Of a DNA stretch of 64,000 bases, positions 4,748 to 49,704 are shown piece after piece. This DNA comes from Ignavibacteriaceae bacterium (lineage in GTDB: Bacteria; Bacteroidota; Ignavibacteria; Ignavibacteriales; Ignavibacteriaceae). Location: assembly GCA_963662605.1 (NCBI GenBank), contig OY759785.1, positions 1,725,721-1,789,720 on the forward strand, in the 5' to 3' direction. The translations under genes and the position numbers were made by a program. Position 1 is the stretch's first letter; each line of letters opens with the position of its first letter. A model generated the notes under the pieces. That model did not search any database and was not told the DNA's origin. It saw nothing but the letters and a program-made list of their open reading frames with translations.

Positions 4748-7738
4748 CTATTTCAGGAATATCATCTTTTTTATGCTGGTGAACTGTTTGCCCGAGGACA
4801 ATTCCTTACCCATAAACCGGTAAATATAAACGCCACTTGATAAACTGTAATTACTCATATTTACTGTTTGATCGTAGTATCCGGTTTCCGAAATGCCGTT
4901 GAAAAGAGTAGCTATCTTTTGCCCGGTTAAAGAGTATAGCTCAAGAGTTACATGGCTATTTGCCGGAAGTGTGTAAGAAATCTTTGTTGAAGGGTTAAAC
5001 GGATTCGGGTAATTTTGAGACAAAGTGAATTCAACTGGAGCCGCTATCACAGCCTCAATAGTTTTGCTGAATTCATAACTACCGTCATTATCAACCATTC
5101 TTAACCGGTACTGAAATGTACCCACTGTAGAATTTTTATCTATAAATGAATAGCTCTTCGGAGAGTTGCTGTAGTTGTTAGCACGAACTTCACCGAGAAC
5201 CGACCAACTATTTGCTCCGGACAGGGAACGCTCTATTACGAATTTGTACGAATTGATTTCTGTGGCGGTATTCCAATCAAGTAGAACGGTTCTGCCTTGT
5301 GTAGAGCAGTTGAACGTGCTCAATTCAACCGGAAGCGGGTGGAGGCTATCACCGGCAGTCCAGGTCGAAAATGCATCAATACCACTTAAGGTGATTGTAT
5401 TTGCGGCAACATCGCGGCTTCCAACACCGCCATAAATCCATGTGGTGCCATTGTCAGTTGATCTCCACAATTTGAGATTGGACTCGCTAATGCCGTTCAA
5501 CTCAGCCGTCGTATCGTCATATTTGAATGCCAGAGTTGCATTTAATCCGGTATTCACAGTAGGTGAAATACTATAGTAGCGTTTAATCGAAGTATTACTG
5601 TTTCCACTAAGAGCCGTGCCGGTAGTACGTGTTACTACAGTTGAACCGGGGGCGGCGCCATTAGCAGTAATTGCAATTCCGATCCCTCCGAAAGTATTGT
5701 TCGCGCTTTGGCTGACGGTTCTGGTGGCGGTGATTTTACCAATGACTCTGTTGCCGGAACCTTCGCTTAAGGTTGCCGAGGATCCGAGGGAGATTGTGTT
5801 TGCCCCAGTATATAGCAATCCGGCAGTCATTGTAAGAGTGCCGTTTACGGTGAGGGCTGAACCTAATGTAGCATTTCCTGAGGAAGTACGATTTACTGTA
5901 AGGTTATTAACATTTTGTGAACCGGAGGTAAAAGAAATCGTACCAAAAGCTCCTGTACCGTTAATAGTAACGTTTGAGGCGCTATTACCTTTTATAGTTC
6001 CGGAACCACTCATTGTGCTTGCGGTACCGGCCGCGCCTACTGTCAAGTCCTTACCATTAAGGTCCAATACATCAGTACTGTTAATAAAAGTAATCGGACT
6101 GCCACCGTTTGGCGCAGTTGATGTCAAATTAGTTGCGTTCAACTGTAATGTTGTTCCGGTGCCCCCTGATCTACCAACAATTATATACGGGATACTTACA
6201 GCTCCAGAGGCGTGATTAATTGTCTGGGTTCCATCTTTTAAGAAAAATATAGCACGGCCGTTGCCGGTAAAAGCGGAAGAAGAACCGAATGTTACATTAC
6301 CATATGTTTTAATGTCTCCGCCCGTAGTTGCTGATAATGTCAGGGCACCGTTAATAGACATATTCCCCATAACGGTTAGAGCAGCACTCATAGCGGTAGT
6401 ATTCAAAGTCAAAGTTGAACCATTATCAACGGTCATATTCCCAGCGCATTGCCTTGCTGTACTCGCTCCGCCATTTCCCAAATCTAACGTGGAGTTGTTC
6501 GAGATTTGCACGTTGTATGGATAACCTGCTCCTGATGTCGTATTCCATTCAAGGTAACGGCCATATGTTGTCGCAGAGTAATATTGGAGCGTTGAACCGC
6601 TTCCGTAAGTCGGAGGATTAGTGTCAACATAACCGCCGGCATTAATTCTGAATGTGCCGTTTATCGTAGATGCACCGCCGAAATTTACTCCGCCTGAAGC
6701 ATAAACATTATTAAAGGAAACAGTACCGGAAATGGTACCTGCGCCCGCGAATGTTATTGTCCCGTCATTTGCCGTAAATGTACCGCTATTTGTAAAAGCA
6801 CCGCCGGAGGTAATAGTTAAATTTACAGCAGATGCACTTTTTGATGTCAAAGTTGCACCGCTTTTAATATTAACCGAATTTGCCGTTGCTGTTGCATCAA
6901 TTGTGACACTATTTTTAATTAATACATCGTAAGCATTGGTCGGTACGGTTGTGTTTTCCCATGTAGTTGTCGCGGACCAATCACCGTCTGCTTTGGAGCC
7001 GTAGTAATTTACAGTGTATGAGTAATAGCTGCCGCTTGTGTCCTTATAGCTCAATGAGGAGACTTCAATATTGGATGTCGGACTGGATAGCGTTGTTGAG
7101 AAGACAAAGTATTTTACCGTCGTTCCCTTAGCTTGTTTCGGTATTGTCACAGTTCCGCTTGACCCGGAAAATGAAATAGCACTTGAATTTGTCCAATTAC
7201 TTCCATTATCAGTGCTGTATCTAAGATATACGTTCTCTTCAGAGCTTTTTGAGCCGCTCAAATAAACAGTAATGGTAATGGCATCGTTATTTGAGACAGG
7301 TTGAGAAGGTGGATTGGAAACTGCATTAATCGTTACGGGTGCAGCGCTTGTTTCCATTACAACACCAAGAGCACTGGCGTATCCGTTATTTTTCAATCTG
7401 TAAGTATAATACTTTCCGCTTGTTACTCCACCGGTCAATGAATTGTCCGATCCGGCATAGTTAGCATTCCATGTGAAAGTGCTTACTGTATTCTTACCTG
7501 CTGTTACACCGTTCCACTTGTTGTAATAACTGTCTGCTTCAAACAACCACACGGATGGATTATATGTTCCGGTTGCCTGAATTGTATAGTAGAAATATGA
7601 AGCACCATTGACAGTCTGGGTACTCATTTGATGCATGGCGCCCCAGTTGCCGTCAACTTGCCCACCAACATACATGGTTTGCGAATATAACGTAACGCTG
7701 GATAAAATCAGTAGTAATATAAAGTAACATTTTTTCAT
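4748..7738 (-). CDS. Secreted beta-helix/adhesin-like protein with T9SS C-terminal sorting domain
   Basis: Signal peptide MKKCYFILLLILSSVTLYSQ. A long Gly/Thr/Ser/Asn-rich repetitive middle has a parallel beta-helix-like pattern. The C-terminus is NYPNPFNPSTKISYTLP...GVYIYRF...KKMIFLK. Confidence 0.8.
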   Translation of the reverse strand: MKKCYFILLLILSSVTLYSQTMYVGGQVDGNWGAMHQMSTQTVNGASYFYYTIQATGTYNPSVWLFEADSYYNKWNGVTAGKNTVSTFTWNANYAGSDNSLTGGVTSGKYYTYRLKNNGYASALGVVMETSAAPVTINAVSNPPSQPVSNNDAITITVYLSGSKSSEENVYLRYSTDNGSNWTNSSAISFSGSSGTVTIPKQAKGTTVKYFVFSTTLSSPTSNIEVSSLSYKDTSGSYYSYTVNYYGSKADGDWSATTTWENTTVPTNAYDVLIKNSVTIDATATANSVNIKSGATLTSKSASAVNLTITSGGAFTNSGTFTANDGTITFAGAGTISGTVSFNNVYASGGVNFGGASTINGTFRINAGGYVDTNPPTYGSGSTLQYYSATTYGRYLEWNTTSGAGYPYNVQISNNSTLDLGNGGASTARQCAGNMTVDNGSTLTLNTTAMSAALTVMGNMSINGALTLSATTGGDIKTYGNVTFGSSSAFTGNGRAIFFLKDGTQTINHASGAVSIPYIIVGRSGGTGTTLQLNATNLTSTAPNGGSPITFINSTDVLDLNGKDLTVGAAGTASTMSGSGTIKGNSASNVTINGTGAFGTISFTSGSQNVNNLTVNRTSSGNATLGSALTVNGTLTMTAGLLYTGANTISLGSSATLSEGSGNRVIGKITATRTVSQSANNTFGGIGIAITANGAAPGSTVVTRTTGTALSGNSNTSIKRYYSISPTVNTGLNATLAFKYDDTTAELNGISESNLKLWRSTDNGTTWIYGGVGSRDVAANTITLSGIDAFSTWTAGDSLHPLPVELSTFNCSTQGRTVLLDWNTATEINSYKFVIERSLSGANSWSVLGEVRANNYSNSPKSYSFIDKNSTVGTFQYRLRMVDNDGSYEFSKTIEAVIAAPVEFTLSQNYPNPFNPSTKISYTLPANSHVTLELYSLTGQKIATLFNGISETGYYDQTVNMSNYSLSSGVYIYRFMGKELSSGKQFTSIKKMIFLK

Positions 7739-41934: not shown

Positions 41935-42975
41935 ATGAAAAAACTTTTATTATTACTACCGCTTGTTATTATATTTTTAGCCGGCTGTCAACCGGATAAA
42001 TTGGATTTAACCGAATTTAAGACTACTGCCACCCCAAATACAGGTGATACTATGTATATACGGTTGGGTGGTGAGTGGGGAGGCTTTAACAACCCAAGCG
42101 CATTGCTTATTGGGCATGAACCCTTTATATATGTCTGCGATAAAGATAATAATCGAATTGTTATGCTTAATACCGCCGGGACTGTTTTAGGTTTCTTATC
42201 AATTAAGCAGCCAGTTGCAATCGCGGAGGATTATAAAGATAATCTAATCGTTTGTGCTTCATTTGATACATTAATATTAGGTTCTACAGTAACTTATAGT
42301 GCTGTTTATAAAATCAACCTGTATGAAGCACGCCATGTTATCGCTAACGCGAAAATGACCAGAATTTTACCTGTGAAACCGGCTGATTTTGTAGCGACAA
42401 GAAAATATACTGCTGTAGCAGCATTTTTTGACAATTCATATTATGTAGCTCGGTTTGGGCCTAATAATACCAGTGTTTATGATCCTGATAATTCAATATT
42501 GAAATTTTCAGGGGATACGTTGACTGGAAAAGTTAGCGGTCTTGATCCATTAAGTATAGGGCTAAAAACTGCTTATGGTATAAGTTCTATTACTCCCTTC
42601 TCAAAGCAGAACTTTGATTTTATAACTACATATAGCACTAATGTTAGTTTTAAAGCGATATGGTATGCAATTGATCTACAAGGCGATTACTATTCGAAAT
42701 TTTCTCCCGGCGACGGATCAGATTTTATTAAACCTGACAGGTTCCAAAATGCAACCGGTTCCTGCTTAGATGCATATGGAAATATTTTCATTGCGGATGC
42801 CGGAAAAGATAGTGTTTATAAATTCAATTCATCAGGTTATGAAATGCAATCGTTTGGTGGTACTTCAATATTCACGAAACCCGTCGCAGTCGGTCATTTT
42901 GACAAGATACTGTATGTCCTCGATGCCGGTAAAAATTCTATACTACGATTCATCTTATCAACGGACACTAAATGA
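41935..42975 (+). CDS. NHL-repeat-like beta-propeller lipoprotein
   Basis: Lipobox FLAGC. NHL-like repeats include DNNRIVMLNTAGTVLG, GNIFIADAGKDSVYKFNSSGYE and ILYVLDAGKNSILRF. Confidence 0.5.
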   Translation: MKKLLLLLPLVIIFLAGCQPDKLDLTEFKTTATPNTGDTMYIRLGGEWGGFNNPSALLIGHEPFIYVCDKDNNRIVMLNTAGTVLGFLSIKQPVAIAEDYKDNLIVCASFDTLILGSTVTYSAVYKINLYEARHVIANAKMTRILPVKPADFVATRKYTAVAAFFDNSYYVARFGPNNTSVYDPDNSILKFSGDTLTGKVSGLDPLSIGLKTAYGISSITPFSKQNFDFITTYSTNVSFKAIWYAIDLQGDYYSKFSPGDGSDFIKPDRFQNATGSCLDAYGNIFIADAGKDSVYKFNSSGYEMQSFGGTSIFTKPVAVGHFDKILYVLDAGKNSILRFILSTDTK

Positions 42976-45413: not shown

Positions 45414-45469
45414 GGGGCTATAGCTCAGCTGGGAGAGCGTCCCGATAGCATCGGGAAGGTCAGCGGTTC
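45414..45469 (+). pseudogene. Truncated 5' fragment of a tRNA-Ala-like gene (acceptor 5' strand to T-loop TTC), anticodon-loop ATAGCAT
   Basis: GGGGCTA-TA-GCTC-AGCTGGGA-GAGC-G-TCCCG-ATAGCAT-CGGGA-AGGTC-AGCGG-TTC, then unrelated AGAGCTAATAAAG. No 3' T-stem or acceptor strand follows. Confidence 0.7.
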
Positions 45470-45493: not shown

Positions 45494-45566
<73 letters not shown>

Positions 45567-45570
45567 CTAA

Positions 45571-45595
45571 GGGACGCAAACGCGTCCCTTTTTTT
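45571..45595 (+). terminator. Rho-independent terminator after tRNA-Ala
   Basis: GGGACGC-AAAC-GCGTCCC followed by seven T residues. Confidence 0.85.
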
Positions 45596-45634
45596 ATGTC
45601 TGTAGTTACCAATCACATTGTGGTTATTGGATGC

Positions 45635-45743
45635 ATGGTGGTAGCTCATCTTATGTAAAGCTGTCAAGTTGGGAGAGCGTCCCGATGCATCGGGAAGGTC
45701 AGCGGTTCCTCGCAGAGTCCCGTGGAGATCCCGCTTAGCTCCA
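45635..45743 (+). pseudogene. tRNA-Ala-like module 1 (disrupted: D-loop and T-loop insertions, 6-nt anticodon loop, mispaired acceptor stem)
   Basis: ATGGTGG-TA-GCTCA-[TCTTATGTAAAGCTGTCAA]-GTTGGGAGAGCG-TCCCG-ATGCAT-CGGGA-AGGTCAGCGGTTC-[CTCGCAGAGTCCCGTGGAG]-ATCCCGCTTAGCTCCA, aligned by eye to the intact gene. Confidence 0.65.
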
Positions 45744-45747
45744 CTAA

Positions 45748-45772
45748 GGGACGCAAACGCGTCCCTTTTTTT
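45748..45772 (+). terminator. Duplicate copy of the tRNA-Ala terminator inside repeat unit 2
   Basis: Identical GGGACGC-AAAC-GCGTCCC-T7. Confidence 0.8.
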
Positions 45773-45812
45773 ATGTCTGTAGTTACCCAATCACATTGTG
45801 GTTATTGGATGC

Positions 45813-45921
45813 ATGGTGGTAGCTCATCTTATGTAAAGCTGTCAAGTTGGGAGAGCGTCCCGATGCATCGGGAAGGTCAGCGGTTCCTCGCAGAGTCCCG
45901 TGGAGATCCCGCTTAGCTCCA
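45813..45921 (+). pseudogene. tRNA-Ala-like module 2 (copy of module 1)
   Basis: Same sequence as 45635-45743, shifted by 178 nt. Confidence 0.65.
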
Positions 45922-45925
45922 CAAA

Positions 45926-45948
45926 GTACGCATTTGCGTCTTTTTTTT
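45926..45948 (+). terminator. Weak hairpin + T8 (diverged homologue of the repeated terminator)
   Basis: ACGC-ATTT-GCGT followed by C and eight T residues. The flanks (CAAAG..., ...ATGTC) align with those of the repeated terminator. Confidence 0.5.
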
Positions 45949-46097: not shown

Positions 46098-48323
46098 ATG
46101 AAAAATCAATTAAACCATATTAAAAAATTAATAGCTCCAATCCTCAGTTTCCGACTTACCCTAAAAAACTTGTCATGGATTGTATTCGGCTTCACGCTAT
46201 TGCTGCTTATTATGCCGCTAACCAAGTATTTTAGTTTTGAGTTTTGCGCCGTAGAGGGGTTGTTTTTATCGTTCACCGGAGGAGTGGTATTTATCCTGAT
46301 GAACCGAAGCAGATCGAAAATCAATCTCAGGGAGTTCGCGGGTAAGTGCTTTCTCATATTTCTCATACCTCTGGCAATGCAGACAATTAAAATTCTCTTT
46401 GCCGGTTATTCGTGCCTTTGGCATGGAACCCGTTTCTACTTTGTTATTACCATGCCCTCGGTTTTCGTTGGTCTCGGCATAGCAGCATTTGCGTTGATTA
46501 CCAATAAGAAGCACAGTCTGGCGTTATTCATAGGCTATTACATAGTAATGGCACTTTGGCCGTTGTGGATACTTTACTACTATCAGCAGCTGTATTTCTA
46601 CAACCCGCTAATCGGGATTTTCCCCGGTACTGTTTATGACGAGCTGATTCGCATTACGCCTTTATTGATTATTCATCAGATCGGCTGTATCTGTATTGCG
46701 ATTGTACTTATCATTTTTGCACAAAAGAATACGGGAAAGAACTCTCGAAGAGGATTAACCATACTGCTTTTTCTAACCGGATTTGTAGTGTGGTATGTTT
46801 CGCCTATTTCTCCGTTTGTCACACCGCGTGCTCATATTGAAAAGGAGCTTCGGGGAAGAATCAAGACGGATCATTTTCTGATTTATTACAAAGAGGGGAG
46901 TCTGACTTTAGATGCTGCTAAGGATATCGGATTGCTCCATGAGGTTTACTTTGAGCAGCTCAGGCAGTTTTATCAGACAGAACCGAAAAGCATAATACGA
47001 TCCTACCTTTTCCATTCTCCGGAGGAAAAATCCCGGTTGTTGGGGACTGCCGCGGCAGATTTCGCTAAACCCTGGAAGAATGAAATATATATAACAGATG
47101 AATCTATAGCTAATACTCTCAAGCACGAACTTTCACATGTATTTACCGCTGCTTTCGGGTATTCTCCATACGAACTATCACATGGTTTCGACCCAGCTAT
47201 GCTGGAGGGCGCCGCAACCGCTTCCACGCCTGTGTATGATGATTTCCCGTTGAACTATATGGCATTTCAGGCCTTTACTGCTGATACAAACTTATCGGTC
47301 TCATCGCTTTTTGGCGGATTAAGTTTTTTTGGCGGCGTATCCTCTACATCATATTGCATTTCAGGATCCTTTTGCCGGTATTTGATTAACTCATATGGGA
47401 TATTGAAATTCCGGGATGCATACAAAAATGGATTTTCTAAGAAAATCTATGGAAAAACACTCAGTGAGTTGGGGAAAGAGTACAAAGCGAATCTGTTTTC
47501 GCAGGGATATGTTTACAATGCGGATTTAGCCGATTTCTATTTTAGGGGACAGGGGCTGCTCCAAAAGACTTCACCACATTATGCCGCTGAGTTAAAGCAC
47601 GAATCCGTATTGCTGATGAAGCAGGGCAGATACACAGAGGCTTTGCTCTCACTGGGAAGTATTCACAAGAGTCTTTTGCAGGTTTCGCTTTTAAAAGTTA
47701 AAATTTTGGAGAAATTGAAACGTTTTGATGAAGCTATCTTTATATTAAGAGAGGCACGTGAAGTTTGTGGTAAGTCGGGAGCATGTCGCGAAATAGAATT
47801 AGCCTTAGCAAATTGCTATTTCATGAAAGGTGACCTTGATAAAGCCGGGAGCATGTATAAAGATCTACGGGAGCACGTCCAACGACCTTTTTTTAGATCA
47901 ATTTGCTCCTCAAGGCTTTTGGCTGTACAAAATCGGGAGCACGTAGAGGAAGTTTTCTGCGATGATGCCAATGTTAGATACCGTCTATATTCTAACCTGC
48001 TAACTGAAACCGGCAACTCTTCGATAATTCCTGTTGTTTTAATACTTGCGGGCAATGCACATGCACCTTACGCAGATACGAAGAAAGTAATATCCAGATG
48101 GTTTGACCATCAGAAAACGATTGAAGAATACAACGCTCTTTGGTTGTTGCGGTTTGCAATAAATCATGGTGATACGGAATTTGCCAAAGACATTTTGTAT
48201 AAAAATGATTCAAAAAACATTATTTTTTCACCAGCAATTTCCGAAGAACGGAAAAAGATGCGTGCTATGGAATTGATCCTTGAAAGAGGGTTTCAGTACA
48301 ATATTTGGAATAATCATGAGTGA
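46098..48323 (+). CDS. Polytopic membrane protein with HExxH metallopeptidase-like motif and C-terminal TPR-like region
   Basis: About 240 aa of N-terminal TM helices, then TLKHELSHVFTAAFG (HExxH). Helical repeats such as RYTEALLSLGSI..., RFDEAIFILREA... and GDLDKAGSMYKDL follow. Confidence 0.55.
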   Translation: MKNQLNHIKKLIAPILSFRLTLKNLSWIVFGFTLLLLIMPLTKYFSFEFCAVEGLFLSFTGGVVFILMNRSRSKINLREFAGKCFLIFLIPLAMQTIKILFAGYSCLWHGTRFYFVITMPSVFVGLGIAAFALITNKKHSLALFIGYYIVMALWPLWILYYYQQLYFYNPLIGIFPGTVYDELIRITPLLIIHQIGCICIAIVLIIFAQKNTGKNSRRGLTILLFLTGFVVWYVSPISPFVTPRAHIEKELRGRIKTDHFLIYYKEGSLTLDAAKDIGLLHEVYFEQLRQFYQTEPKSIIRSYLFHSPEEKSRLLGTAAADFAKPWKNEIYITDESIANTLKHELSHVFTAAFGYSPYELSHGFDPAMLEGAATASTPVYDDFPLNYMAFQAFTADTNLSVSSLFGGLSFFGGVSSTSYCISGSFCRYLINSYGILKFRDAYKNGFSKKIYGKTLSELGKEYKANLFSQGYVYNADLADFYFRGQGLLQKTSPHYAAELKHESVLLMKQGRYTEALLSLGSIHKSLLQVSLLKVKILEKLKRFDEAIFILREAREVCGKSGACREIELALANCYFMKGDLDKAGSMYKDLREHVQRPFFRSICSSRLLAVQNREHVEEVFCDDANVRYRLYSNLLTETGNSSIIPVVLILAGNAHAPYADTKKVISRWFDHQKTIEEYNALWLLRFAINHGDTEFAKDILYKNDSKNIIFSPAISEERKKMRAMELILERGFQYNIWNNHE

Positions 48324-49704
48324 AGTAAAACGGAAACAAAACCTGAAAAGTGAAATTCTTCGGGACGAAATATTGAAAAGTATTTCGTTGATTTCCGGTA
48401 CAACGTTTTACGCCAGCGGTACAACCGTGCTTGATCTCCTGTCAAAGCAACCGGTTGAAGGTTATTACTTGCATTTTTGCGGAGATAGAGGAGCTTTTCT
48501 TAACTTTTGCGAACATGACAAGGCAGGTAAAAAGTTTAGTCTTATCTCATATCATGAAAAATCCGAAACGTGGGCTTTCAGCATAGGGGGAAGGAACGTT
48601 TTAATTACGTATTACAATTCTGTCAGAAAGCTCTCGAGCGGAATTAAAAATTATGCTGCATCTGTCGGGATTCCGGTATTATCACTCTATGTTTCGCTTA
48701 GTGAGAGAAGTATCGGAAAGGTATTCAGCCTGTTTGAAGGATATGATGATTATTGCAATGGCGTTTTTCGGCATAGCCTCAACATAGTTGAGGCATTCTG
48801 GAGCCATCATTCCTTCTTATTAAGCTTATGCTACTATGCTGCAAAATATCAACTCACTCCGGATATAGGTGTCTTGGAATTAATGCGGCAGCATGCGGAG
48901 GGGGTAATCATCCCTGCAAGTGAGGGTTCGGCAATATTTTTCAAAATCCTCGGTACACCTCGGCCTTCAATCGGATTGAAGATGCTTCATGAGTCGGGAC
49001 TGTTAAGAAATTTTTTCCCTGAAGCTTCAAACATGGCAGGTGTTGAGCCTGTGGGTGGATATCAACACAAGGATGTTTTTTATCATACGTGCGAAGTTGT
49101 TGATAACATCAGCCGAACGACCGGCAACATTTGGCTCCGCTTCGCGGCATTCGTACACGACATTGCTAAGCCTCATACAAAGCGATTTATTGAAGGAACC
49201 GGATGGACATTCCACGGACACGAAGAAAAAGGTGCCCGTTTAATGAAGGGGCTCTTCTACCGCTTGGGATTAGAGAGGGAAATGCTTCCTTATGTTCAGA
49301 AAATGATTCGGCTGCACTTGCGTCCGTCGGCGTTGGTGAGCGAGGAGATAACTGATTCGGCCGTACGGCGTTTGATAACCGAAGCAGGAGAGCACCTTGA
49401 GGATCTGCTTAAATTATGCCGGGCTGATATAACAAGTAAGAACCCGGGAAAAGTTAACCGCGTAAGAAGAAATTATGATGTCGTTGAAGCAAAAATTCTC
49501 GCGGTGAAAGAAAAAGATGAGCTTGCAGCATTCCAATCGCCGGTTAAAGGTGAGGAGATTATGCAAATCTGCGGGCTTAGACCCTCCCGGAAGGTCGGGG
49601 AAATAAAAACTGCGATTGAAGATGCGATATTACGTGGGGAAATTGAAAACACCTATGAGGCCGCTTTGCAATACCTCATGCGGATTAAGGATTCCTTTAA
49701 TTAG
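48316..49704 (+). CDS. CCA-adding-enzyme-like HD-domain protein with degenerate nucleotidyltransferase head
   Basis: The HD domain reads HKDVFYHTCEVVDN...FAAFVHDIAKP...GHEEKGARLMKGLFYRLGL. The N-terminal FYASGTTVLDLLSKQPVEGYYLHF aligns by eye with the canonical F.VGG.VRDLLLG....D.DI motif but lacks GG, R and both Asp residues. The ATG at 48316 overlaps the upstream stop (ATGAGTGA). Confidence 0.7.
   Translation: MSEVKRKQNLKSEILRDEILKSISLISGTTFYASGTTVLDLLSKQPVEGYYLHFCGDRGAFLNFCEHDKAGKKFSLISYHEKSETWAFSIGGRNVLITYYNSVRKLSSGIKNYAASVGIPVLSLYVSLSERSIGKVFSLFEGYDDYCNGVFRHSLNIVEAFWSHHSFLLSLCYYAAKYQLTPDIGVLELMRQHAEGVIIPASEGSAIFFKILGTPRPSIGLKMLHESGLLRNFFPEASNMAGVEPVGGYQHKDVFYHTCEVVDNISRTTGNIWLRFAAFVHDIAKPHTKRFIEGTGWTFHGHEEKGARLMKGLFYRLGLEREMLPYVQKMIRLHLRPSALVSEEITDSAVRRLITEAGEHLEDLLKLCRADITSKNPGKVNRVRRNYDVVEAKILAVKEKDELAAFQSPVKGEEIMQICGLRPSRKVGEIKTAIEDAILRGEIENTYEAALQYLMRIKDSFN

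Follow-up and report, generated by a model that had tools for sequence, protein, structure and literature searches.

What are two identical tRNA-like modules, each with its D-loop, anticodon arm and T-loop altered by inserted or replacement sequence, doing behind an intact tRNA-Ala gene? The question is raised by a stretch of 64,000 nucleotides (the window, hereafter) from the genome of an Ignavibacteriaceae bacterium (contig OY759785.1 of assembly GCA_963662605.1, positions 1,725,721 to 1,789,720), in which module A (45635–45743) and module B (45813–45921), 109 nt long and 100% identical to one another, follow each other in tandem; all positions given here refer to the plus strand of the window unless coordinates of the genome (C1) are indicated. 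The evidence presented below suggests that the modules are probably a gene-less, tandemly duplicated form of a family of selfish cassettes that reside in or beside tRNA genes. Loci of this family would keep one intact tRNA gene and carry spare copies, full or partial, whose hairpin loops are occupied by short palindromes; at the present locus the anticodon arm would be replaced by the signature hairpin of the family, TCCCGA-N4-TCGGGA, two mini-hairpins, together 18 nt long, would split the T-loop exactly at the midpoint of its palindrome (TTC|GA) and the D-loop would hold a decayed insert where other copies have a TCCGCC..GGCGGA-CAAGYT palindrome. As part of the same explanation, which as a whole we consider likely, the modules are taken to be DNA-level relics and not RNA genes.

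Anatomy of the modules

The tracts GCTC..GAGC, GGGAGAGCG, AGGTCAGCGGTTC and ATCCCGCTTAGCTCCA of the modules are identical in the intact, functional-looking tRNA-Ala(GGC) at 45494–45566, the sole preserved copy at the locus (called by ARAGORN; 63.5 bits with Rfam RF00005), and both these conserved tracts and the boundaries of the two modules stand as they had been described in a first-pass annotation of this DNA. Module A is a full-length, scrambled tRNA-Ala copy with an intact 3′ end, which yields no tRNA call and has homologues in relatives. It opens with a degenerate acceptor and D stem (45635–45648), decayed to 9 identical positions of 14, and continues with a 21-nt insert in the D-loop, TCTTATGTAAAGCTGTCAAGT (45649–45669), with the hairpin TCCCGATGCATCGGGA in place of the anticodon arm (45680–45695) and with an 18-nt double mini-palindrome, CTCGCAGAGTCCCGTGGA, placed between C56 and G57 of the T-loop (45709–45726). 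The corresponding elements of module B, which is identical, are found at 45827–45847, 45858–45873 and 45887–45904, respectively.

The first-pass annotation had recognized all three alterations, though not their exact extent. The D-loop insertion, put at about 19 nt, is 21 nt long; the T-loop insertion, described as 19 nt replacing a G, consists instead of 18 nt that separate C56 from G57, the latter being kept; and the palindrome of the anticodon arm, given a length of 14 nt, is perfect over 16 nt and stands where a canonical tRNA has a 7-nt anticodon loop on its stem. The acceptor stem had been judged unable to pair properly and is indeed unsound, ATGGTGG and TAGCTCC forming a single Watson–Crick and three G–T pairs in place of the 7-bp acceptor stem of canonical tRNAs; in a register shifted by 2 nt GGTGGTA pairs with TAGCTCC at five of seven positions, and the stem is still not sound.

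The palindromes of the T-loop and D-loop

Inserts placed exactly at C56|G57 are present in this genome in spare 3′ copies of tRNA-Lys(TTT), Lys(CTT), Ser(TGA) (two copies), Ser(CGA), Glu(CTC), Arg(ACG) and His, and likewise in copies of Ala(GGC) (two), of Ala(CGC) and of the gene for tmRNA. Most of them consist of two adjacent mini-palindromes, each with a stem of 3–4 bp and a 3-nt loop, the second one being replaced in the Lys(CTT) and Arg(ACG) copies by a full TCCCGA hairpin. The sequences of the stems differ between tRNA families with conservation of the pairing, and all stems predicted for inserts of this genome and of its order are Watson–Crick (single G–T pairs occur in 3 of 17 folded inserts, all from other genomes). 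The 18-nt insert of the window is tiled exactly by two units of 3-bp stem plus 3-nt loop, a property shared by a fraction of only 3.4e-4 of random 18-mers of the same composition and seen in four different tRNA families; this exact tiling test was adopted because nearest-neighbour energies are too weak to serve as a test of 3-bp mini-hairpins. According to Hirao and co-workers, the d(C-GNA-G) sequence is reportedly a very stable DNA mini-hairpin motif, to which the C:G-closed GAA and GCA loops of the inserts presumably conform. Furthermore, the middle of the T-loop, TTC|GA(A), coincides with the midpoint of a palindrome, so that the insert occupies the apex of the hairpin formed by the T-arm in single-stranded DNA (ssDNA).

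The 18-nt insert is at the same time a repeat scattered over the genome, which holds about 13 copies of it when up to two mismatches are allowed; one exact copy is located far from tRNA genes. In most cases these copies form the tip of a longer stem (e.g., GTAGAGACAGCTG..CAGCTGTCTC). Nine copies are present in the sister species and none in three other genera.

Two further arrangements of mini-hairpins were observed. At the tmRNA locus (C1:2065660-2065730) a 3′-end copy located behind the gene bears the same 18-nt double mini-hairpin (CTCGCAGAGTCCTGTGGA) in its T-loop, and its T stem and acceptor strand are separated by a palindrome, TCCGCCGCTGGCGGG. A family resembling repetitive extragenic palindromes (REPs), GTAGAGACNGCTG-TTCGCAGAA-TCCYGTGGA-GCAGCNGTCTC (C1:8700-8830, 661100-661200 and 1575900-1576000), has a mini-hairpin pair at the tip of a 10-bp stem, sometimes adjoining a TCCCGA hairpin flanked by CTCGATAC/ACTCGA.

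As to the D-loop, it had been suggested that its insert is a patchwork derived from a second degenerate D-arm. Other copies hold at this place a palindrome followed by CAAG(C/T)T, as seen in the sister species (ATCCGCCACGGCGGACAGGCT), in another genus (GCCTGCTTTGGTGGCAGACAAGCT) and in the first unit of the tRNA-Ala(CGC) array described below (TCCACCAGAGCCAGACAAGTT); a palindrome of this type is nested within the anticodon hairpin in two copies, and palindromes occupy the D-loop in other phyla as well. Since the insert of the window, whose palindrome is decayed, shares its position and its CAAGTT tail, and nothing more, with these elements, the proposal of a second D-arm finds no support. The D-loop insert is not a dispersed repeat in this genome, where it is unique to the locus apart from the paralogous unit at tRNA-Ala(CGC).

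The suspicion that two insertions of similar size in the elbow loops are an odd outcome for random decay is therefore well founded, because the same positions are filled by palindromic inserts in many other tRNA gene copies belonging to several genera and phyla.

The signature hairpin and the small GIY-YIG genes

The hairpin that replaces the anticodon arm belongs to a family, TCCCGA-N0-8-TCGGGA, with 58 occurrences in the genome as compared with 0–3 for eight control palindromes of the same composition. Its members are gathered around tRNA genes, 13 of 29 hairpin clusters lying within 500 bp of such a gene (0.3 expected) and 15 of the 45 tRNA genes having a cluster at a distance of 500 bp or less. 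The same neighbourhoods harbour small genes for GIY-YIG nucleases. Nine such open reading frames (ORFs) are present in the genome, eight apparently intact and one interrupted by a stop codon, and seven of the nine are found at no more than 250 bp from a tRNA gene (Lys, Cys, Asp, Arg-CCT, Arg-CCG, Met and Asn), five of the nine being within 400 bp of a hairpin. At these loci one intact tRNA is accompanied by 5′ and/or 3′ copies in which the hairpin stands for the anticodon arm. The proteins match PF01541 as their only Pfam domain and nothing specific in NCBIfam.

The tRNA-Lys(TTT) locus offers an elaborate example. A twelve-copy tandem array of 5′ fragments with a period of 98 nt, each with TCCCGACTTTTCGGGA, occupies C1:945679-946850 and lies upstream of the intact tRNA-Lys(TTT), of a GIY-YIG gene and of a 3′ copy whose T-loop holds an insert; the 3′ piece recurs 10.6 kb away, at about C1:957597. 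The ORF linked to tRNA-Asp in this genome ends in ...GGPD, with its TAG codon in the hairpin loop.

Relatives and other phyla

Had the modules been neutral debris, the first-pass annotation reasoned, their inserts should be conserved in no relative and should not be expressed; the first of these two expectations does not hold, the module being kept in the sister species. At the syntenic locus of the latter there is one module, devoid of a 5′ acceptor strand and without an accompanying 5′ fragment, in which the tRNA-like tracts and the hairpin arms are identical to those of the present genome at 50 of 50 positions; its hairpin contains a nested TCCGCCGCGGCGGACAAG and its T-loop insert reads TCCCAAAGGGATCCGGTGGA(T). 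The flanking coding sequences of the two genomes are 84% and 74% identical, and it follows that the module is maintained, either by selection or by gene conversion.

In three other relatives of the same order, one of them of the same family, an intact tRNA-Ala(GGC) is followed by a GIY-YIG ORF of 73–88 codons (PF01541, E 7e-16 to 8e-19) and by a 3′ copy of tRNA-Ala with the hairpin. The first bases of these 3′ copies are those of the GAGAG(C/T)G tract, which reads GGGAGAGCG in two cases, and two of the three have a two-hairpin insert in the T-loop. A fourth genus of the order has the 5′ fragment, the ORF and the intact tRNA, in this succession. In the genus under study, on the other hand, the GIY-YIG gene is absent from the Ala loci.

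Beyond the order, the motif GAGAGCG-TCCCGA-N2-10-TCGGGA-AGGT was found in at least 119 DNA stretches of the species genome collection, from Ignavibacteria, Bacteroidota, Chloroflexota, Armatimonadota, Nitrospirota, Acidobacteriota, Marinisomatota and others. Among the 97 matches examined, two are tRNA-Ala genes according to ARAGORN and seven fall within ARAGORN calls of other or undetermined identity, with Ala-type bodies and the hairpin as anticodon arm. The other matches that were read are either 5′ fragments located some 50–300 nt (in most cases 50–125 nt) upstream of an intact tRNA-Ala or 3′ fragments located some 320–390 nt downstream of it with a nuclease ORF in between; a few 3′ copies begin 80–250 nt downstream of tRNA-Ala and leave no room for an ORF, and for roughly one third of the matches no intact tRNA-Ala is present within 1.5 kb of the fetched stretch. 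Several of these stretches also have palindromes in the T-loop, such as CTCCGGAGGAG-TCCCACTGGGA in a Marinisomatota genome. Several Ala-linked ORFs end in ...GERPD or ...GERPE and have their stop codon in the hairpin loop; in L080, L081, L082, L083 and L010 the ORF terminates immediately before the hairpin or within it. The C-terminal G-E-R-P-D of the Ala-linked GIY-YIG ORFs is encoded by GGGAGAGCGTCCCGA, a tRNA-derived tract.

Over 41 genomes the hairpin was counted 606 times and the controls 70 times, with enrichment in nearly all 40 relatives (four have no excess). Every relative searched has several small GIY-YIG genes, in some cases in tandem arrays, and the number of hairpins correlates with that of GIY-YIG genes with a rho of 0.42 that is not corrected for phylogeny. 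The exact form of the Ala module with a T-loop insert is rare (4 of 401 genomes of the class) and its general design widespread. The cassettes are almost absent from viral contigs (one match in 2.9 million), and a metagenome scan returned one contig, nearly identical to a relative already found in the genome searches.

The tandem arrays consist of three to five near-identical small GIY-YIG genes with periods of 315–421 nt (G024:C1:5062466-5064214, G029:C19:516155-517895, G003:C1:2945594-2947066 and G010:C3:546108-547159), the last of them having a TCCCGAAAATTTCGGGA hairpin between successive copies. In two metagenome-assembled genomes (L099, around position 7002, and L111, around position 220) an apparently functional tRNA-Ala(GGC) has as its anticodon arm the hairpin of the cassettes, with TCCCG/CGGGA as stem and a proper ATGGCAT loop; moreover, many hairpins of tRNA fragments retain loops of the NGC type (TTGCA, TAGCA, TGGCA). 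These sequences hint that a real anticodon arm may have given rise to the hairpin in its Ala form, or that this form can work as one.

The locus and its paralogue at tRNA-Ala(CGC)

Between 45414 and 45948 the order of the elements is a 5′ fragment of tRNA-Ala, the intact tRNA-Ala(GGC), a terminator and two tandem copies of a unit of 177/178 nt, each made of spacer, 109-nt module and terminator, so arranged that the tandem period equals exactly one unit. The 5′ fragment (45414–45469) comprises positions 1–56 of the tRNA and ends after the GGTTC of the T-loop; it scores 15.7 bits with the Rfam tRNA model, a tRNA being accepted here upon an ARAGORN call or a cloverleaf covariance score (RF00005) of at least 29 bits, and has the hairpin TCCCGATAGCATCGGGA (45440–45456) in place of the anticodon arm. 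The intrinsic terminator behind the intact tRNA (45569–45595), identified by the terminator scan, is the first copy of a duplicated terminator contained in a 61-nt repeat (D2), the second copy of which, found by the same scan and by repeat analysis, is at 45746–45772. The unit-specific spacer, homologous to that of the unit behind tRNA-Ala(CGC) and otherwise unique in the genome, occupies 45596–45634 and, with a 1-nt indel, 45773–45812. The array is closed by a diverged terminator-like hairpin (GTACGCATTTGCGTC followed by a T run; 45923–45948) that remains under the threshold of the scan.

The paralogous unit is found 1.87 Mb away, at a locus of like layout: an array of 5′ fragments precedes the intact tRNA-Ala(CGC), behind which come a terminator and a module that has CTCACAGAGTCCTGCGGA inserted in its T-loop. 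The array (C1:3637263-3638230, minus strand) comprises about ten tandem 74-nt 5′ fragments of tRNA-Ala, all with the TCCCGA hairpin and broken off in the T-loop, which differ from one another in their hairpin loops (AC, CGA). The module is homologous to the unit of the window in its spacer, degenerate 5′ end, D-loop insert, hairpin and T-loop insert; the alignment of the non-tRNA parts of the two units has a z of 5.2, a score reached by none of 1000 shuffles. Its T-arm, on the other hand, matches that of its own neighbouring tRNA, and its acceptor stem, GGAGTTA/TAGCTCC, is sound. The homology of the non-tRNA parts, combined with a T-arm of the local type, leads to the conclusion that the unit was copied between the tRNA-Ala loci, its tRNA parts evolving in concert with the local gene. 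The sister species has no module at tRNA-Ala(CGC), and the terminator and downstream flank found there align with those behind the module in this genome.

Of five neighbouring ORFs that were examined around the tRNA locus of the window, none is an integrase. One (41935–42975) has no Pfam match; the products of the other four are a PLD-like substrate of the type IX secretion system (T9SS), a protein resembling PorV, a membrane protein of the TPR/peptidase type and an HD protein resembling the CCA enzyme. The ORF at 48280–49704 (plus strand), 2.4 kb downstream of the tRNA locus and located after the TPR/peptidase-MA membrane protein, combines an HD domain with RNA-binding domains of the CCA-adding enzyme/poly(A)-polymerase type; no connection between it and the modules was found.

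Comparison with known systems

The closest parallel is provided by the Ssn system, in which a 94-aa GIY-YIG enzyme binds and cuts ssDNA at a hairpin repeat flanking its own gene (Chenal et al. 2025, PMC11893778). In both cases (Ssn/NTS/SRM on one side, the present family on the other) the nuclease has about 85–95 residues and consists of the GIY-YIG domain only; a short hairpin repeat with a TCCCG-type core, of which the genome contains tens of copies, a strong over-representation (here 58 occurrences against 0–3), flanks the nuclease genes in the order hairpin–gene–hairpin; and the loop is free in sequence and tolerates extensions. Unlike in Ssn, the hairpins considered here take the place of arms, or interrupt them, in spare copies of tRNA genes (the paper, PMC11893778, contains no mention of tRNA), and the locus of the window lacks a nuclease gene, a feature present at the homologous loci of relatives. 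Because the SRM motif finds no match and the nucleases resemble the UPF0213 protein BH0048, what can be claimed is that the present family works like Ssn and not that it is a member of it.

With REPs, bacterial interspersed mosaic elements (BIMEs) and their RAYT partners, and with insertion sequences of the IS1397 type, whose targets are REP loops, the family shares dispersed short palindromes, one of which may be nested in the loop of another; the 18-nt insert occurs elsewhere in the genome at the apex of GTAG-headed GTAGAGAC.. stems and nine Y1_Tnp (RAYT/IS200-like) genes are present, one of them with a GTAGAGAC..GTCTC hairpin (GTAGAGACACCCGGCGGGTGTCTC) upstream. In contrast to these systems, the modules have no GTAG-headed stem and the signature hairpin tracks GIY-YIG rather than Y1 genes. 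REPs are extragenic and, to our knowledge, have not been found built into tRNA gene copies.

Integrative elements directed at the T-loop or 3′ end of tRNA and tmRNA genes carry a replacement 3′ end. With them, too, the 3′ end is directly repeated, the intact tRNA and the displaced end lie on opposite sides, the breakpoint is in the T-loop and tmRNA is affected. They differ in possessing an integrase, which is lacking here, and in measuring kilobases as opposed to 178 nt; besides, the displaced copy is here full length and altered also in the D-loop and anticodon arm. SegB, of the T4 tRNA cluster, is a GIY-YIG nuclease that adjoins tRNA genes and spreads probably via homologous repair; however, Seg enzymes have DNA-binding domains and cut the double-stranded DNA of competing phages, whereas the proteins described here are single-domain and chromosomal, and their cassettes are accompanied by palindromes and broken tRNA copies. 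Finally, the repetitive hairpin elements (RHEs) of sponge mitochondria (PMC2800124) and the palindromes of Volvox (PMC2670323) proliferate as short palindromes in or near structured RNA genes, those of tRNAs included, but are organellar, have no known nuclease partner and do not follow the rule of one intact plus scrambled copies. The literature search returned no description of cassettes of the GIY-YIG or hairpin kind located at tRNA genes of bacteria.

A possible mechanism and the points against it

If the modules contain no gene, how could they have been formed and multiplied? By analogy with Ssn/NTS, it can be envisaged that a single-domain GIY-YIG nuclease of about 85 residues (UPF0213/BH0048-like) recognizes hairpins extruded from ssDNA and nicks the DNA nearby. 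On a gene-less unit the nuclease would act in trans. The resulting breaks would be repaired using a neighbouring or paralogous tRNA copy as template, and this would give rise to duplication, gene conversion and tandem amplification; in this manner the whole unit of about 178 nt (tRNA 3′ end, terminator, spacer and scrambled copy) could be copied between genes of the tRNA-Ala type, selection keeping one working tRNA.

A bolder version of this scheme, which we advance only tentatively, is that the ~178-nt unit belongs, as a non-autonomous element, to a novel class of mobile DNA, in which a trans-acting, hairpin-specific, single-domain GIY-YIG nuclease would break ssDNA at the tips of the natural hairpins of tRNA genes, above all at TTC|GA, and homology-dependent repair would copy the unit into any gene of the tRNA-Ala type, that of tmRNA included. 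Universally conserved tRNA sequence would then serve as a portable homology arm, a circumstance that would account for the presence of the same design in more than 10 phyla and for the tandem arrays.

Several points weigh against the explanation preferred here. No nuclease gene is present at the locus of the window, the nearest one being about 125 kb away, and no remnant of an ORF was found in the spacer: a tblastn search with 11 cassette nucleases matched only the tRNA-derived GERPD tail, and the idea that the spacer holds what is left of a deleted GIY-YIG ORF was discarded on this ground. Since neither gene nor remnant is found here, the link with the nuclease at this locus is drawn from the relatives and from the common hairpin. 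The best match of the nucleases in the PDB, their solved homologue, is the UPF0213 protein BH0048 (E 4e-8). A search of the genome with the SRM sequence HGTCWY..YYVSBRH..WNVSBRG..RNCYNB gave 17 matches, as compared with 10–17 in shuffled sequences, and none at tRNA or nuclease loci. In the nuclease tree, which is poorly resolved, the proteins do not cluster by tRNA type, the Ala label requiring five changes, a number equalled by 70 of 500 shuffles. Some of the palindromes could be partnered instead by the nine Y1 transposase genes, a role as RNA, instead of gene conversion, could explain why the tRNA-like parts are conserved, and the breaks may have a purely cellular origin, such as hairpin processing or replication slippage.

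Insertion module, RNA gene or pseudogene?

Three other explanations have to be weighed against that of a gene-less form of a selfish cassette family. The one that survives best, in our opinion a somewhat improbable one, is that the ~178-nt unit is a discrete, non-autonomous insertion module that enters tRNA-Ala-type genes precisely at C56|G57 in a homing-like or site-specific fashion, supplies a replacement 3′ end of the tRNA together with a terminator and has the former 3′ end come to lie behind its terminal mini-hairpins, repeated entry generating tandem arrays. It overlaps with the explanation preferred here, from which it differs in that the whole unit would be mobile instead of being a local tRNA duplicate invaded later by palindromes. 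The exact correspondence between tandem period and unit is what this model predicts, although unequal crossing-over between the 61-nt repeats accounts equally well for the tandem copy; the homology of the non-tRNA parts of the Ala(CGC) unit agrees with it, and so do the 5′ fragments, which in this and in other genomes often end at C56, and the tmRNA copy, which has the same 18-nt end at the same position of its T-loop. At tRNA-Ala(CGC), furthermore, a filled and an empty site can be compared, the native terminator being directly behind the tRNA in the sister species and behind the module here, but the direction of this difference, insertion or deletion, is not polarized by an outgroup. Although the 5′ strand of the T stem is part of the unit, at each locus it has the local sequence type; local gene conversion is thus needed in any case, and no enzyme capable of strand transfer has been identified. 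On present data an insertion module and duplication plus gene conversion are inseparable.

Could the modules instead be functional? The first-pass annotation considered the possibility of a tRNA-like RNA, subject perhaps to processing by RNase P/Z, and in favour of a decoy, regulator or processing signal with extended D, anticodon and T arms there are a terminator of its own behind each module, tRNA-like parts perfectly kept between the two species, T-loop mini-hairpins that vary between tRNA families with retention of pairing and, in the Ala(CGC) copy, a sound acceptor stem. Nonetheless, an RNA function is rather unlikely. Neither module is called by ARAGORN or matches any known RNA family in Rfam at E ≤ 10, and with the mismatch of the acceptor stem this upholds the earlier view that they are not canonical tRNAs. 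The predicted RNA structure of the module is not better than that of shuffled sequences (z = +0.26), the fold of the corresponding DNA being modestly better (z = -1.86). The acceptor stem is broken in the copies of the window, and the copy of the sister species lacks its 5′ strand. Upstream of the modules there is no sigma-70-like promoter, and between them and the intact tRNA stands a 9-bp GC-rich terminator, so that transcription could enter them only by read-through. The Watson–Crick nature of the stems and the existence elsewhere of several TCCCGA-type hairpins that are perfect palindromes without a loop fit DNA palindromes, and the same palindromes recur in many contexts unrelated to tRNA.

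The inserts were considered also as archaeal-type introns with a bulge–helix–bulge (BHB) motif, at 56/57 and in the D-loop. This candidate was rejected because the complete genome contains no splicing endonuclease (PF01974), for which control archaea do give a match, and because the inserts are dispersed DNA repeats.

Lastly, repeats of the tRNA 3′ end and breakpoints in the T-loop (a sublocation that Williams reportedly described in 2002) are typical of the att sites of integrases, and the 5′ acceptor part is decayed, but that the modules are neutral scrambled pseudogenes or leftover att sites of a tyrosine-integrase island is very improbable and largely refuted by the neighbourhood, where none of the five ORFs examined is an integrase or belongs to another mobile element, by the size of the unit (just 178 nt), by the palindromes that hold the same three positions across tRNA types and several phyla, by the membership of the inserts in dispersed repeat families and by the conservation of the module against a background of 74–84%.

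Biological implications

The present locus adds to the known systems a case of the Ignavibacteria type in which all three loops are occupied in one and the same copy, and a T-loop insert that corresponds to a genus-wide dispersed double mini-hairpin found also in a tmRNA copy; the negative outcome of the test for the SRM motif is likewise new. For the organism itself, the surroundings of its tRNA genes emerge as hot spots of duplication and gene conversion. For the uncharacterized GIY-YIG family of the UPF0213 type, the association described here provides a tie to a concrete candidate DNA target and may widen the range of specificities of the recently discovered single-strand-specific nucleases. 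If the explanation preferred here is true, tRNA and tmRNA genes would represent the habitat of tiny selfish elements, made of palindromes and of an 85-residue nuclease, which spare the last working copy of the gene in which they live, and this could explain many of the odd pseudo-tRNAs, arrays of tRNA fragments and unexplained small GIY-YIG genes encountered in bacterial annotations across phyla.

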